Below are positions 3,742-54,855 of a stretch of 64,000 nt of DNA, in pieces. Each line of letters opens with the position of its first letter. Position 1 is the first letter of the stretch. The DNA comes from an uncultured delta proteobacterium (GTDB lineage Bacteria; Desulfobacterota; BSN033; UBA1163), in NCBI GenBank assembly GCA_963827685.1, contig CAWHBU010000002.1:544001-608000 (forward strand), read 5' to 3'. Both the position numbers and the translations under genes were made by a program. The notes under the pieces were generated by a model. It worked only from the letters and a program-made list of their open reading frames with translations, did no database searches and was not told where the DNA came from.

Positions 3742-4554
3742 ATGATCGACTCACACACCCATATCTTCCCGGATAAGGTTGCTCCCAAAGTCGTTGAAAA
3801 ATTCCGGACTGCAATAGGGGACGCAATTGCGCTTTTTGGAGATTTCACCCTGAAGGATATAAAAGCGTACATGGACAGATGCGGAATCGAGGCGGTCGTG
3901 ACCTTCTGCGTGGCGGAAAAGCCCGAAGTAGTGGTTGCAGCGAATAACTTTCTCATTGAGATCAATGATAACCGGACCATCTTTGGCTTCGGTACCATCC
4001 TCCCGAATATGGAAGACCCGGTAGGAGAGGTAAGAAGGATTGAAGAAAAAGGGCTCAAGGGAATCAAGTTTCATTCCCTCTTCCAGCCCATCCGGGCTAA
4101 AGATGAAAACCTCGTTCCCATTTATGACGCTATGGCGAAAGCCGGTATGATTGCCTATTTCCATGTAGGAAAGGACCCTGTACACCCTTCCCATCCTCCC
4201 GGAACCAGCCCTCAAGATATCGCCCGTCTCCGAGAACGCTTCCCCGCTCTAAAGATTGTAGCCGCTCATTTCGGTGGTCTCTTCATGCTGGATGAGGCTC
4301 GGAAATGGATTATTGGCAAAGATATCTATATTGACACCTGTTGGGGGCCGAATGTTCAAAGCCTGGAGTCGGGTGTAGTGGTAGATCTCATCCGTCAGCA
4401 TGGGGCGGGGAAAGTCCTCTTTGCCACCGATTATCCTTCCACCACTGATCCCGCGCCTCAGATCAAGTGGTTCAAAGAACTTCCCTTGGAAGAAAAGGAA
4501 AAACAATTAATTTTTGGGGAAAATGCCCGTCGGCTTCTGGGGTTTTCTGGATGA
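3742..4554 (+). CDS. Amidohydrolase-family (TIM-barrel, Amidohydro_2) protein
   Basis: IDSHTH metal motif, GIKFH, AAHFGG, LFATDYP, NARRLL; AAGGAG RBS. Confidence 0.85.
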   Translation: MIDSHTHIFPDKVAPKVVEKFRTAIGDAIALFGDFTLKDIKAYMDRCGIEAVVTFCVAEKPEVVVAANNFLIEINDNRTIFGFGTILPNMEDPVGEVRRIEEKGLKGIKFHSLFQPIRAKDENLVPIYDAMAKAGMIAYFHVGKDPVHPSHPPGTSPQDIARLRERFPALKIVAAHFGGLFMLDEARKWIIGKDIYIDTCWGPNVQSLESGVVVDLIRQHGAGKVLFATDYPSTTDPAPQIKWFKELPLEEKEKQLIFGENARRLLGFSG

Positions 4555-49758: not shown

Positions 49759-49848
49759 GATTAACAACTGAGATAACCCGCGCAGGCAAGCACCTATGCC
49801 AAAAACCTGCCGCGGCTAATCCGCGTCAGGTTGATGCGGTTGTTAGTG
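49759..49848 (-). other. attC site
   Basis: Minus strand: CACTAAC AACCG CATCAACC TGACGCG...CGCG GGTTATC TCAGTT GTTAATC; R'' pairs with the GTTAGTGAG at 50191-50199. Confidence 0.8.
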
Positions 49849-50186: not shown

Positions 50187-50199
50187 TTTTCTCACTAAC

Positions 50200-50503
50200 G
50201 AGCCTGTAGAAAAAGTCACTTTTTTAAAAAGTGCTTCTTCTGCTGGATCAAAAATAGAAAATTATTTTCTGTCATCAAAAGGCTTTACAATCCTTGGTGC
50301 AATGTTTGTCTTTTCATGATATTTTTCTTACCAAAGTACCATATCACCCAATCCGGCTCCGTTCACGCAAACTCCACACCGTATCGAACGGAATAATCAT
50401 ATCTTTGTATCTCGCCATCCAGCCCCCCTAAGCGGTCCCGGCTCTCTTTGCCACTACTGATATGGCGATTTTATCATGCTTTCAAAGATTTTTCTACGGC
50501 CTC
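50200..50503. mobile_element. 304-bp MITE inserted at the attC crossover
   Basis: Terminal inverted repeats GAGCCTGTAGAAAAA / TTTTTCTACGGCCTC; no ORF; begins immediately after CTAAC. Confidence 0.75.
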
Positions 50504-50590
50504 AAAGGGGGTGAGCTAACTACCAGATCGTAAGCTAAAGAAGAAGGGAGAAATGGGTGACACTCCTGAGAAGGAGAAAGGAGTGTACCC

Positions 50591-52537
50591 ATGGAGAATG
50601 TAGCAGGAGTTAAGAAGAAGGGCAAGAGGAAAGGAAGTCGGTATGGGAAGCGGTATGGGGTTGAGTTCAAGCTTCGGTGTGTGAAGTTACGATTAGAAGA
50701 AGGGTTACCAGTTTCTTTGTTGTCCGAGGAGGCAGGAGCCAGTAAAGATGTCATTCGTCGTTGGGTGAAGGCATATCAGGAACGGGGAGAAGCGGGGTTA
50801 CGGAATCGTATTATATCCTCGGGGAGACGACGGAAGCTTCCCGGACCAGTACGCGAGAAGATCGTCGAGATCAAGAAGCGTGAGCCTCTCTTTGGTGTCA
50901 AGCGGATTTCCCATCTTTTAAAGCGTGCGTTCTTCCTCAGCGCGAGCCCGGAGACAGTCCGTCGGACGCTGCGGGCAGAATCGTTGATTGTTCCTTCCAG
51001 AAAGAAACACCATCGCAACATCACCCGTCCTCGGTTTTTTGAGCGGTCGACACCGAATCAATTGTGGCAGTCGGACATCTTCACCTTTCGCCTGGGGGGT
51101 CGGTATGCCTATTTGATCGGGTTTATCGACGATTACTCGCGGTACATGGCGGGTTTGGAGTTATACCGGAGCCAGACGGCGGATCAGGTACTGGAGGTGT
51201 ATCGTCGGGCAGTTGGGGAGTATGGGGTACCGAAGGAGGTGTTGACAGATCGGGGACGGCAATATACGAACTGGCGGGGATCGACTCGGTTTGAGCGGGA
51301 GTTACGGAAGGACCGAGTCAGACACATTAAGTCCCAGGCCCATCATCCGATGACGCTGGGGAAGGTGGAGCGGTTTTGGAAGACGATCTATGAGGAGTTT
51401 TTGGTACGGGCGCAGTTTGGGAGTTTTGAGGAGGCGAGAGAGAGGATTCGGCAGTGGGTGCAGTATTACAATTACAAGCGGCCTCACCAGGGGATTGGAG
51501 GGCTGTGTCCTGCGGATCGGTACTTTGAGATCCAGGCAGAGCTGCGAAAGACGATGGAGCAAGGGATCGCAGAGAATGTGCTGGAGATGGCCTTGCGGGG
51601 GAAGCCGCGGGAGCCGTTTTACATGGTAGGGCGGATGGAGGGGCAGTCGGTGGTCTTACGGGCGGAGAAGGGAAAGCTGCGTTTGATGGTGGATGATGAA
51701 GAGGGCGGTGGAAAGCAGGAGATGATCTATGAAGTTGGCGCCAAAGGAGAAGAGAAAGATCGTTCTATTAAGAGGGAGGAGAGCGATGGACAAGGTAGAG
51801 AAGCCGAAGGTAGAGAGGTCAGGGATAGAGGACAAGAGAGGGAGGAAGGTTTCGGGGCACACGGCGGAGGAGAAGTGCCGGGCGGTGTTGTCGGTATGGA
51901 CGGAGAGACGCAAACCCGGAGAGGTTTGCCAGGAGTTGGGAGTCGCGTGGAGTTTATTGAACCAGTGGCAGGAGCGGGCGATGGAGGGGATGCTCTTGGC
52001 ATTGCAGTCACGGGTTGCGGTGATGGAGAAGAGAGTGGCATTGAACTCGCGTCTTGCGGTATTGTTGGAGCGGAAGAGCAAGGGAGGAGCGATGAAAGGA
52101 TTGGAGCGGCGTTTGGCGAGACTGCAGGGAAGTCCGGTGGCCAAGCCAGGAGAGTTGAAGGAGGTTGGGGCAGAGAAGAAGGTCTGACAATCTACAGGGA
52201 GATTTTGGATGGAGGAAAGGAAACGGCGGCACGAGAGGGAGAAGGAACAGAAACTTGCACGGGAGCGGGCGCTGGTGATTCTCCAGGTGCGCAGTGGAGC
52301 CTTAACTGCAAAGGAGGGAGCGCAGCGGCTGGGGGTGTCGCGCAAGACGTATTACGAGTGGGAGGAGAAGTCGCTCAAAGCCATGGCCCTGGCGTTGGAG
52401 AATCATCCTGCGGGAAGACCGCCTGTGCCTGTGGACGAAGAGAAGGAGACGCTTCTGGAGCGGATCCAGGAATTGGAGAAGAAGCTGGATGTCGCGAAGC
52501 AGACCACCAAGGTGAAAGAGTTCCTGGGGGTGTATGA
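50591..52537 (+). CDS. IS481/IS3-superfamily transposase (HTH + rve DDE) with a long Gly/Glu-rich tail
   Basis: WQSDIF, FIDDYSR, LTDRGRQY, TLGKVERFW, YNYKRPHQ; the last roughly 250 aa are low-complexity and overlap two other ORFs. Confidence 0.85.
   Translation: MENVAGVKKKGKRKGSRYGKRYGVEFKLRCVKLRLEEGLPVSLLSEEAGASKDVIRRWVKAYQERGEAGLRNRIISSGRRRKLPGPVREKIVEIKKREPLFGVKRISHLLKRAFFLSASPETVRRTLRAESLIVPSRKKHHRNITRPRFFERSTPNQLWQSDIFTFRLGGRYAYLIGFIDDYSRYMAGLELYRSQTADQVLEVYRRAVGEYGVPKEVLTDRGRQYTNWRGSTRFERELRKDRVRHIKSQAHHPMTLGKVERFWKTIYEEFLVRAQFGSFEEARERIRQWVQYYNYKRPHQGIGGLCPADRYFEIQAELRKTMEQGIAENVLEMALRGKPREPFYMVGRMEGQSVVLRAEKGKLRLMVDDEEGGGKQEMIYEVGAKGEEKDRSIKREESDGQGREAEGREVRDRGQEREEGFGAHGGGEVPGGVVGMDGETQTRRGLPGVGSRVEFIEPVAGAGDGGDALGIAVTGCGDGEESGIELASCGIVGAEEQGRSDERIGAAFGETAGKSGGQARRVEGGWGREEGLTIYREILDGGKETAAREGEGTETCTGAGAGDSPGAQWSLNCKGGSAAAGGVAQDVLRVGGEVAQSHGPGVGESSCGKTACACGRREGDASGADPGIGEEAGCREADHQGERVPGGV
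51786..52187 (+). CDS. HTH protein (IS3 OrfA-like)
   Basis: GGAGGAG RBS; HTAEEKCRAVL...EVCQELGV....NQW. Confidence 0.7.
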   Translation: MDKVEKPKVERSGIEDKRGRKVSGHTAEEKCRAVLSVWTERRKPGEVCQELGVAWSLLNQWQERAMEGMLLALQSRVAVMEKRVALNSRLAVLLERKSKGGAMKGLERRLARLQGSPVAKPGELKEVGAEKKV

Positions 52538-52577
52538 GGAGTTTCGGGACCGCGGCGGCGCTAAAAAAAAACAATAG
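52209..52577 (+). CDS. HTH protein (OrfA of a probable -1 frameshift fusion)
   Basis: TAKEGAQRLGVSRKTYYEWE, AGRP, coiled coil; ends in an A9 run (52563-52571). Confidence 0.8.
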   Translation: MEERKRRHEREKEQKLARERALVILQVRSGALTAKEGAQRLGVSRKTYYEWEEKSLKAMALALENHPAGRPPVPVDEEKETLLERIQELEKKLDVAKQTTKVKEFLGVYEEFRDRGGAKKKQ

Positions 52578-52621
52578 ATCGGCAAGAAGCGATCAGAAAG
52601 GTTGTAGAGACGATTGAGAGT

Positions 52622-53659
52622 ATGAAGGAACGGACAGGGATGCCTTATGGGATGATTTGCAAGACGCTTCAGCTCCCTTTAGCGAGTTTTAACCGGTGGC
52701 GCTTCAGGATCAAGGAAAACGTTGTTTTAATCAATCGTCCGGGTCCGAAGAAGGTACAACCGTTTGATCCTTCGGTTCTTGACACGGAGGTTCAATCGTT
52801 AGATCATGGGGTGAAGCGGAGTGTAGGAACAACCGGCTTATATCAACGGTACCGGTTTAGTGTGTCACGGCGGGAGCTGGGGCGAATGGTGGAGCGGGTA
52901 CGGCACGACCTGGAGTCGGATCGCCGTGCCCATCTTCGCTGGATCGAATGGCTGACGCCAGGGGTAGTGTGGGCTATGGACTTCACGGCATATGACCTGG
53001 GGATAGCCGGTAAAATCTATTTGCACAATACGCAGGATCTGGGCTCGCGGTACAAGTTTTTGCCGATGGCCGGAGAGTATCCGGTTGGAGAAGAGGTGGC
53101 TGGATATCTGAGCGAGAAGTTTGATCGGTATGGCACGCCTCTGGTGTTGAAGCGGGATAATGAAGGGAATATGAACCACACCGCCATCAACGATGTATTA
53201 GCCGAATCATTTGTTCTACCTTTGAACAATCCGGAGTATTATGCACCCTACAATGGAGCAATCGAAGAGTCACAACGAGAGGTGAAGACAACTCTACGGA
53301 AGAAAATTATGTTGGGTTTGCATGGCTACCGGGATCATATCGCTGCGTATGCGGAAGCTGCGGTCAATGATCTGAACCATCGGATCCGGCCTTGCCTGAA
53401 TGGGAAGACATCCTGTCAGGCATTCTTTGAATCTGGCAACAGACCGGCTTTTACGAAACGGCAAAGGAGGGGAATCTATGATTGGGTAATGGAAAGGGTG
53501 GAAAGGATTTTGTTGGCAATGAATCAATCTGGACTGGCTGTCAGAGAATCAGCCTGGAGGATCGCGGTGGAATCCTGGCTCCAATCCAGTGGACATATCA
53601 GGGTTCACATCAATAAAAAGTGTCACCCAATTTTACCCCTTTTTTTAGCTCATGAATAG
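52622..53659 (+). CDS. Second rve/DDE transposase domain (OrfB)
   Basis: WAMDFT, TQDLGSRY, LKRDNEG, PYNGAIEES, LNHRIRP; in the -1 frame relative to 52209..52577 and open from the A9 run. Confidence 0.8.
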   Translation: MKERTGMPYGMICKTLQLPLASFNRWRFRIKENVVLINRPGPKKVQPFDPSVLDTEVQSLDHGVKRSVGTTGLYQRYRFSVSRRELGRMVERVRHDLESDRRAHLRWIEWLTPGVVWAMDFTAYDLGIAGKIYLHNTQDLGSRYKFLPMAGEYPVGEEVAGYLSEKFDRYGTPLVLKRDNEGNMNHTAINDVLAESFVLPLNNPEYYAPYNGAIEESQREVKTTLRKKIMLGLHGYRDHIAAYAEAAVNDLNHRIRPCLNGKTSCQAFFESGNRPAFTKRQRRGIYDWVMERVERILLAMNQSGLAVRESAWRIAVESWLQSSGHIRVHINKKCHPILPLFLAHE

Positions 53660-53678
53660 GTAGCGTGTACGGTGAGCT

Positions 53679-53728
53679 TGAGCTAAGTGGTGGGCGCTTT
53701 GCCCATCCACTTGAGCGACTTGTTCAGC
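53679..53728 (-). other. attC site, R''/L''/L' part (split by insertions)
   Basis: Minus strand: GCTGAAC AAGTC GCTCAAGT GGATGGGCAAAGCGCCCACC ACTTAGC; its R' GTTAGTG lies at 50193-50199. Confidence 0.75.
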
Positions 53729-53730
53729 AC

Positions 53731-54852
53731 TAGTATCTACTTGACATAATAAGCGTAATATGCTAACTTTCCTGTATTATGAGCAGGAAAGCAAAAGAAA
53801 TCACGTTGGAGCCCGAGCAACGGGCTGAGTTGGATCGATTGGTTCGAACCCATACCACTCCCAAGCGTATGGCGGAGAGGGCGCAAATTATTCTCTGGGG
53901 TGCTGAAGGGCAGAGTAACACGGAGATTGCCAAAAGGCTGAGGACTCGTGTTGCACGCGTTTGCAAATGGCGTAGCCGTTTCGTCAGAGAAGGGTTGGCA
54001 GGTTTGCTTGATGAACCGCGCCCCGGGCAGCCACGTAAGTACACCGCAGAGACCGAACACACAATTCTGCGCAAGATCGATGAAGCTCCTCCGAAGGGAT
54101 ATGCCCAGTGGAACGGAAGGCTTCTGGGGGAGAGGACGAGCATCCCGGATTATGAAGTGTGGGCGGTGTTGCGCAAGTATGGGATTAGCCTTCAGAGACG
54201 GCGCAGTTGGTGTATTTCGACGGACCCTGAATTTGCACGGAAGTCCGCTGATATTGTTGGGCTTTACCTGGATCCTCCTGAGAACGCCATGGTGGTATGC
54301 ATGGATGAGAAGCCAGCCATTCAGGCGTTGGAACGGGCTCAGGGGTGGCTTAAACTGCCCAATGGCAAGGCGCTGACGGGAGCCAACCATGAGTATAGAC
54401 GGCATGGAACGAGTACCCTCTTTGCAGCCTTGAATGTGGCCACGGGACAAGTGAAGGCGGGCCATTACGGCCGCCGTTGTCGCCGGGAGTTTCTGGATTT
54501 TATGAACGAGATCGTTGCCGAACATCCGGACGAGGAAATCCATGTGATTATGGACAATTTGAAGACTCATCGACCGAAGAGGGATCATTGGATTAAACGC
54601 CATCCGAAGGTTCATTTTCATTTTACGCCCACACATGCTTCCTGGCTGAACCAGATCGAAATCTGGTTCAGTCTTCTGAGCCGCTATGCCTTGAGGGGCG
54701 CCTCCTTTACAAGCGTCCGACAGTTGCGCCAGGCGATCGATGAGTTTATTTCCGTCCATAACGAAAAGGCAGCCCCGTTTGAATGGACCAAGCGTTATGT
54801 CAAATCAGTTCACCCTAAAAATAAGTACGCTTATTTATATAATTAGATACTA
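53731..54852 (+). mobile_element. IS630-family insertion sequence
   Basis: Inverted ends TAGTATCTACTTGACATAATAAGCGTA / TACGCTTATTTATATAATTAGATACTA; CTAG (TA duplication) at both ends. Confidence 0.92.
53779..54846 (+). CDS. IS630-family transposase
   Basis: GLAGLLDEPRPG, CMDEKP, YRRHGT, IMDNL, TPTHASWLNQIEIWF. Confidence 0.95.
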   Translation: MSRKAKEITLEPEQRAELDRLVRTHTTPKRMAERAQIILWGAEGQSNTEIAKRLRTRVARVCKWRSRFVREGLAGLLDEPRPGQPRKYTAETEHTILRKIDEAPPKGYAQWNGRLLGERTSIPDYEVWAVLRKYGISLQRRRSWCISTDPEFARKSADIVGLYLDPPENAMVVCMDEKPAIQALERAQGWLKLPNGKALTGANHEYRRHGTSTLFAALNVATGQVKAGHYGRRCRREFLDFMNEIVAEHPDEEIHVIMDNLKTHRPKRDHWIKRHPKVHFHFTPTHASWLNQIEIWFSLLSRYALRGASFTSVRQLRQAIDEFISVHNEKAAPFEWTKRYVKSVHPKNKYAYLYN

Positions 54853-54855
54853 GTA

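Follow-up and report, generated by a model that had tools for sequence, protein, structure and literature searches.

Closest described systems

IS3-family insertion sequences (ISs) are about 1.2-1.6 kb long, rely on a single Asp-Asp-Glu (DDE) enzyme, OrfAB, and produce target duplications of 3-5 bp. To our knowledge, every IS3 or IS481 element described so far functions with a single catalytic protein, and in the heteromeric transposases known to date the DDE enzyme has a nuclease or an ATPase as its partner, never a second DDE enzyme. The partner proteins in Tn7 and IS21 are of these types, TnsA being a restriction-endonuclease-like nuclease, and IstB and TnsC being ATPases. Here, we focus on an element present in a stretch of 64,000 nucleotides (nt), referred to as the window, from a contig of an uncultured delta proteobacterium (CAWHBU010000002.1, positions 544,001 to 608,000). 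This element is a multi-copy IS of 3.16 kb, whose four-gene layout recurs in many sediment bacteria. Its conserved gene order comprises an open reading frame (ORF) for an IS481-like helix-turn-helix (HTH)-rve transposase (ORF1), an OrfA-like HTH gene (ORF2), and an IS3-like OrfA/OrfB pair (ORF3/ORF4). That one IS encloses two DDE genes is a solid structural finding, and the way in which their products would act is considered below with graded confidence.

The likeness to the IS3 family (IS911, IS2, IS150, and the IS1447 subgroup) lies in the orfA/orfB arrangement of ORF3 and ORF4 in relative frames 0/-1 at an A-rich slippery run, where an ORF3-ORF4 fusion is predicted, and further in the TG...CA tips, the multi-block inverted repeats, the Lys placed seven residues after the Glu of the ORF4 triad, and an ORF1 score just at the cut-off of the IS3 model. 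However, with 3160 bp, the element is about twice as long, and it carries within the same ends, further upstream, a second rve gene, along with an additional paralogue of OrfA. Moreover, ORF4 reaches 27 bits on the IS3 model, ORF1 overlaps ORF2/ORF3 over about 270 codons, and 38 of 41 copies show no target duplication of 3-4 bp. With regard to the IS481 family, the first ~370 residues of ORF1 form a single-frame HTH-rve protein with a full-length model match, and the TG tips are shared, but the ORF1 score falls just under the cut-off of 224 and the protein has 600-680 amino acids (aa) compared with ~350. In addition, IS481 elements (~1-1.5 kb) contain a transposase gene only, whereas three more conserved genes, including that of the second DDE enzyme, are present here, and the nearest standalone relatives are 33-36% identical. 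Tn7 (TnsA+TnsB) and IS21 (IstA+IstB) depend on more than one element protein, among them an rve DDE enzyme, as may this element, but in neither is the partner protein another rve DDE enzyme, and genes of the TnsA, IstB or TnsC type are absent from the element. In the full-text literature searched, which does not cover ISfinder, no IS with two rve transposases is described, and to that extent the layout matches no described family, as the initial annotation had supposed.

One insertion sequence enclosing two rve-type DDE genes

The genome containing the window holds four copies that are 100% identical and a fifth at 83% identity over the same span. Since the identical copies agree from window position 50512 to 53670/53671 and are wholly different beyond, the element measures 3160 bp (Table 1). 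Another genome (G425) harbours five identical copies, each covering its element end to end, and 46 full-length relatives, collected from 16 genome-scan loci and 80 metagenome-scan loci, all have the same two ends. By these features, the segment is one copy of an apparently autonomous, recently active IS of the IS3/IS481 (rve DDE) superfamily. The initial annotation had recognised a real element with inverted repeats, four ORFs and two DDE triads, all of which stood, while its view of the borders, the tips and an attC site had to be revised.

It had also taken the two rve-type genes for parts of one mobile unit. Two unrelated ISs, IS481-like beside IS3-like, nested or abutted, would be an obvious alternative in a locus crowded with mobile DNA (a miniature inverted-repeat transposable element (MITE)-like repeat and an IS630-like element), all the more so as the two transposases resemble each other only remotely (32% identity over 72 residues around the first Asp, E 0.01). 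Yet the same outer borders enclose both genes in the five own copies and in the 46 full-length copies, and no interior sequence matches either 53-nt end (ungapped) at more than 28/53 positions, a value also reached by the best of 30 shuffled controls, in keeping with the initial observation that internal ends are missing. Free-standing halves with their own ends, which the initial annotation had named as the observation that would speak for nesting, were sought in a phylum sample of 401 genomes, using a profile built from the 55-sequence ORF4 alignment and the first 370 residues of ORF1, and none was found. Nesting is rejected because there are neither internal ends nor free-standing halves, and we regard it as highly improbable.

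The distribution of the pair in this sample points in the same direction. Besides the own genome, 11 genomes encode an ORF1 relative of >=43% identity, and in all 11 an ORF4 relative lies on the same contig. These pairs include loci L048-L050, at which ORF1 and ORF4 share 43-51% and 29-33% identity, respectively, with the window proteins, a persistence that counts against nesting. The next ORF1 matches, at 33-36% identity, are ordinary transposases of 349-373 aa with no ORF4 within 1.47 kb downstream. Looking upstream from ORF4, the succession ORF1, ORF2 and ORF3 was found in 47 of the 51 loci offering at least 2050 nt of upstream sequence, which bears out the recurrence of the four-ORF layout in other genomes, and ORF3 was present at all 40 loci with 450-2049 nt. 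The four exceptional loci, too, argue against nesting, being copies truncated beside another element or internally deleted, none with a left end of its own; among them, L017 is a fragment and L020 an internal deletion fusing ORF1 to the back half of ORF4. Taken at the level of sequence, the ORF1-ORF4 pairing is old and consistent.

At two loci (L014, 3150-3340, and L149, 1950-2095), the end of the same unrelated mobile element abuts copies truncated at different points; this element may insert into the two-transposase element or delete parts of it.

Close relatives are labelled Thermodesulfobacteriota, "delta proteobacterium" and Thermodesulfovibrionia metagenome-assembled genomes, and the feature search adds clusters from Myxococcota and Nitrospirota, nearly all annotated "hypothetical protein". 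At E <=0.001, ORF4 relatives amount to 1657 clusters at 90% identity and to 1340 half-identity clusters, of which 240 are found at <=1e-30. A tblastn search of a plasmid collection with ORF4 gave no match. A three-gene form lacking ORF2 was noticed in genome G064 (L158), and this copy sits inside the 3' portion of a different rve transposase gene (L158, 5374-5697), a case of one IS nested in another.

Table 1. Features of the two-transposase element and its surroundings (window coordinates)
Feature	Position	Strand	Size	Remarks
Whole insertion sequence	50512..53671	+	3160 bp	Span common to own-genome copies; ends as in 46 relatives
Left end (left inverted repeat, IRL)	50512..50564	+	53 nt	Blocks TGAGCTAA, CTACCAGATC, GTAAGCTAAA, purine-rich stretch, AATGGGTGACACT core
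Right end (right inverted repeat, IRR)	53619..53671	-	53 nt	Matches IRL at 35/53 positions
ORF1	50591..52537	+	648 aa	Pfam, NCBIfam, 26-sequence alignment, open-frame simulations
ORF2, OrfA-like HTH protein	51786..52187	+	133 aa	ATG 51786 after GGGAGGAG; open from 51729
ORF3, OrfA-like HTH protein	52209..52577	+	122 aa	Ends in the A run
A9 slippery run	52563..52571	+		Links ORF3 (frame 0) to ORF4 (frame -1)
ORF4, divergent rve transposase	52622..53659	+	345 aa	D120, D179, E215, K222; frame open from 52565
MITE-like repeat	50195..50505		311 bp	Ends 4-7 bp before the element
IS630-like element	~53730..54855	+		DDE_3 transposase 53779-54846; 5 identical copies in genome
Odd right junction, window copy only	53671..53686	+		GGTGAGCT then TGAGCTAA

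Terminal inverted repeats

The 45-nt inverted repeat reported initially (50520-50564 / 53619-53663) is present and 73% complementary. The ends were described there as lacking TG...CA, a statement that does not hold for the family. Among the full-length copies, TG opens the left end in 45 of 46, and CA closes 44 of the 45 right ends that are complete, as is typical of the terminal 5'-TG...CA-3' of IS3 elements; the sole exception on the right is the window copy itself, which finishes ...ACG, with a G where the family has an A. Likewise, the supposed flanking repeat TGAGCTAA is not a target duplication, as its left occurrence (50512-50519) belongs to the element, being present as the tip of all four identical copies, and its right occurrence (53679-53686) lies 8 bp beyond the right end.

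The family consensus of the left tip is TGNNCTAACTACCAG. The left end of the family reads TGNNCTAA-CTACCAG... and the right end ...GGTAG-CNTGNACA. The outer 8 nt are asymmetric, with TGNNCTAA on the left versus TGTNCAYG on the right (read inward), and this asymmetry is found family-wide and also in the distant L158.

Two transposases that both look catalytic

Four ORFs on the same strand lie between the repeats, and their initial description as an HTH-rve gene, an HTH gene and an OrfA/OrfB pair with a second, divergent rve domain is sustained by domain searches. In ORF1, Pfam detects HTH_32, HTH_28, rve (2.8e-16) and rve_3 (5.9e-17). The protein scores 222.1 bits on the NCBIfam IS481 model NF033577 (cut-off 224), covering positions 2-284 of 284 in a single frame, and 160.1 bits on the IS3 model NF033516 (cut-off 160). 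Its residues 1 to ~370 correspond to an IS481-like HTH-HTH-rve transposase, followed by a poorly conserved extension (~371-648). ORF2 matches HTH_Tnp_1 (E 3.2e-5) and is a distant paralogue of ORF3 (31% identity over 52 aa, E 5e-6), which itself scores 27.1 bits on the IS3 model. A scan for sigma-70 promoters and terminators returned 3 and 3 sites compared with 1.6 and 2.9 expected, and is uninformative.

Both DDE triads had been considered intact, and alignments of 26 ORF1 and 55 ORF4 sequences confirm it. In ORF1, D220 and E260 are invariant and D162 is nearly so. In ORF4, D120, D179 and E215, together with N211 and G212, are invariant down to 30% identity. The AlphaFold2 model of ORF4 has a mean predicted local distance difference test (pLDDT) value of 90.2, and its top Foldseek matches are the catalytic cores of retroviral integrases (human T-cell leukaemia virus type 2 and mouse mammary tumour virus, root-mean-square deviation 2.2-3.0 Å over ~160 columns). 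Over six diverged copies, divergence at codon positions 1/2/3 amounts to 0.093/0.063/0.309 for ORF1 and 0.144/0.113/0.361 for ORF4; both genes change chiefly at third positions. Judged from these alignments and from the model, ORF1 and ORF4 both look catalytic.

These data bear on the possibility that ORF1 is the only transposase and that the ORF3/ORF4 product is accessory, acting as a regulator, an inhibitor, or an end- or target-binding factor with no need of catalysis. In the IS3 family, regulatory roles of OrfA and OrfB products are known; of the two proteins here, ORF1 matches the curated models better, the rve match of ORF4 (E 9.7e-4) is below the Pfam cut-off, and ORF4 evolves faster than ORF1. 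However, the invariance of the triad and of N211-G212 in 55 sequences would be unexpected if catalysis were dispensable, K222 occupies the E215 +7 position in the window copy, the catalytic-core fold is confidently predicted, and none of the 46 copies has lost the slippery run that would give full-length OrfAB. An accessory ORF4 consequently appears unlikely to us. A complex prediction combining ORF1 (residues 1-370) and ORF4 returned a score of 0.00, which is evidence neither for nor against an interaction.

A conserved A run between ORF3 and ORF4

ORF3 ends with GCT AAA AAA AAA CAA TAG, and the ORF4 frame (-1) opens inside the run. A run of seven to nine A is found at the same place in all 46 full-length copies, namely, A8 in 37, A9 in eight and A7 in one. 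The shift that it would have to provide differs in more distant members. In L158, the A9 run (4293-4301) requires a +1 shift to reach ORF4, and in L160 (reverse strand, near 1475) the run is A AAA AAG, with ORF4 at +1 from ORF3 and at -1 from ORF1, whose frame extends past the run. In this same L160, a -1 shift from ORF1 could reach ORF4 and give a protein with two rve domains.

Because a single run has to serve a -1 shift in some members and a +1 shift in others, transcriptional slippage is the preferred explanation, and we infer by analogy that the A run probably acts in this way. A report on IS1447, a member of the IS3 family, describes an A9 run with transcriptional slippage in both directions (PMC6211511), a further likeness of the present element to that family.

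Stop-codon readthrough from ORF1 to ORF4, which are in the same frame in this subfamily, was considered and dropped, because two stops separate the two genes in most copies and the frames differ in distant members. Relatives of the element are present in DNA contigs and in two metatranscriptome contig sets from four of 20 public runs (X1, X4, X18, X19). No usable heterogeneity of the A run was found in these contigs, which cannot reveal rare forms, starts or strands.

An ORF1 frame kept open over two other genes

Beyond its catalytic domain, the ORF1 frame stays open for ~270-280 codons (51701-52537), spanning ORF2 entirely and the greater part of ORF3 in frame -1. In six diverged copies, this extension contains no stop, compared with 7.8-12.7 expected when the ORF2/ORF3 proteins are held fixed and synonymous codons are drawn from the usage of the element (0 of 2000 simulations for each copy). 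Permuting the synonymous codons of the region itself lowers the expectation to 5.0-6.9 stops, and the probability of finding none is then <=0.0005. The third frame over ORF2/ORF3 holds 8-16 stops, as expected. Long forms predominate among relatives: ORF1 reaches at least 580 aa in 36 of 42 distinct copies, its stop usually falls 1-64 nt before the A run, and the best 120 of 3735 homologues (E <=0.001) are all 604-669 aa long, in a ranking that favours long forms.

Divergence by codon position is 0.13/0.13/0.28 for ORF2 and 0.19/0.09/0.27 for ORF3, which identifies theirs as the conserved frame of the region. For this reason, the ORF1 extension is unlikely to be a folded domain. Most likely, the open ORF1 frame ties ribosome traffic to downstream expression. 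We would guess, from the pattern of stops, that selection favours translation through the ORF2/ORF3 region, perhaps as a way of coupling ORF1 with the genes further downstream or of shielding the transcript.

A proposed role for both enzymes

We propose that the ORF1 and ORF3/ORF4 enzymes would both take part in moving the element, slippage at the A run yielding full-length ORF4 in the form of an ORF3-ORF4 fusion, and translation of ORF1 through ORF2/ORF3 to near this run coupling ORF1 to the downstream genes. Two forms of such a division can be envisaged. Either a mixed transpososome would assemble, in which one protein would handle the left tip and another the non-identical right tip, or the steps would be split, for instance with end joining or copy-out carried out by one enzyme and integration by the other. 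Joint action as a heteromeric transposase is a reasonable inference from the co-occurrence of the genes, the conserved catalytic residues and the asymmetric ends.

Two self-sufficient transposases, redundant or specific to a condition or host, and forming no mixed complex, might also share one element. Each protein has its own HTH regions and a full DDE triad, and the inner conserved blocks are common to both ends, as such an arrangement would allow. But in a compact IS, redundancy should often end in the loss of a gene, and all 11 sampled genomes and 47 of 51 loci have retained the pair. In diverged members, moreover, the ORF1 frame ends near the start region of ORF4, which hints at coupled expression, and the asymmetry of the tips is conserved. 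We consider such independence quite unlikely.

Several observations weigh against the proposal of two cooperating enzymes with coupled expression. ORF4 scores 27.2 bits on the IS3 model and 33 bits on the IS481 model, far under the curated cut-offs. ORF1 has only 499-563 aa in four of the 42 copies and is broken in two, and its extension evolves fastest at its own first codon position (0.27-0.28) and is not conserved as a protein. Subfamilies differ in the frame of ORF4 relative to ORF1 and ORF3, and for this reason no single recoding scheme fits all members. Furthermore, target duplications are expected of rve transposases, but none rose above the chance level, a 3-bp repeat at the TG...CA borders being found in only three of 41 copies (TAT in L083, CCT in L087 and GAT in L125; permutation P 0.038), with no 4-bp repeat in any of the 41 and no better result for 36 other combinations of border and length. 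The duplication is also absent from the own genome (14 contigs, four identical copies) and from G425 (five identical copies); short-read contigs across a repeat can be chimeric. Finally, no end-to-end joint was detected in the contigs of the four public runs, which drop rare forms.

Taking all this together, we hold it probable that the element is one IS with two transposases, both of which move it, with slippage at the A run and a coupled ORF1 frame. A more specific version is put forward tentatively, and we would not place it above a possibility: an undescribed, widespread IS lineage that would need two rve DDE enzymes, one per tip or one for excision or end joining and the other for integration, in amounts tied by the ~270-codon overlap and the A run as a hub, and that would usually leave no target duplication.

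Insertion sites and neighbouring DNA

In the initial annotation, the element was described as inserted into the L box of an attC site, with the suggestion that it may choose sites resembling its own ends or attC hairpins. An attC site is an imperfect palindrome with R''/L''...L'/R' boxes (GTTRRRY core), found in an array beside an intI tyrosine recombinase gene. The hairpin in the 58-bp gap to the right of the element (~53682-53716) folds as DNA with -13.8 kcal/mol (z -2.8) and has no copy elsewhere in the genome, and no GTTRRRY core was noticed when the gap was read by eye. The genome contains 19 Phage_integrase matches, all of them outside the window and the nearest ~57 kb past its end, and no tyrosine recombinase gene is present in the window. 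As for end-like sites, TGAGCTAA occurs four times in the window compared with 1.64 expected, a number reached in 7 of 100 shuffles, and TGNGCTAA was found within 40 nt in one of 38 copies, namely, the window copy. There is no evidence for attC or end-like targeting. Overall, the one unit, its two DDE genes and its recurrent layout remain from the earlier interpretation, but not the attC site, the end-like sites or the missing TG...CA.

Left flanks are A-rich, with A at -5 in 24, at -4 in 19 and at -2 in 19 of 41 copies, and 19 of 41 right flanks begin with G. Empty-site searches returned no relative reaching the junction for the own copy L002, and only relatives that are too diverged for a G425 copy. 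Two own copies could be compared with relatives (L003, C3:1071568-1074728, and L004, C2:977497-980658). In both, the right flank is syntenic up to the junction, and the terminal A therefore belongs to the element. As the left flank is not the continuation of the right one, a rearrangement or deletion at the left end accompanies these two copies; the continuing DNA lies on another contig for L004 and was not found in the genome for L003. This change may reflect the transposition mechanism itself, in the manner of replicative intramolecular events, or may stem from later recombination. Conserved genes are cut at the right ends of L003 and L004, these being a small gene ~75 nt from its start and, judged by eye, a PIN-type gene near its 3' end.

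At the right junction of the window copy, GGTGAGCT equals the 8-mer at 50510-50517, made up of two flank bases and the first six bases of IRL. This odd junction may be the scar of an end-to-end junction, or be due to chance, and is not a family trait. The IS630-like element begins 58 bp past the two-transposase element. On the left, the two halves of the MITE-like repeat (50195-50387 and 50391-50505) have matches at numerous sites of the own genome and of relatives, there ~1.5 kb apart, as if the repeat were derived from a 1.8-kb element. Further upstream, a ~73-bp sequence (49773-49845), in which ARAGORN predicts no tRNA, recurs in numerous related genomes with 74-89% identity.

Implications

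A compact and abundant element with two DDE enzymes would offer a test system for the division of labour between ends, strands or steps of transposition. Its ORF1 is a clear-cut example from bacteria of an extended frame that has stayed free of stops across two further genes. In other respects, the work on ORF4 gives a name to a large family of "hypothetical" proteins that are mostly missed by Pfam.

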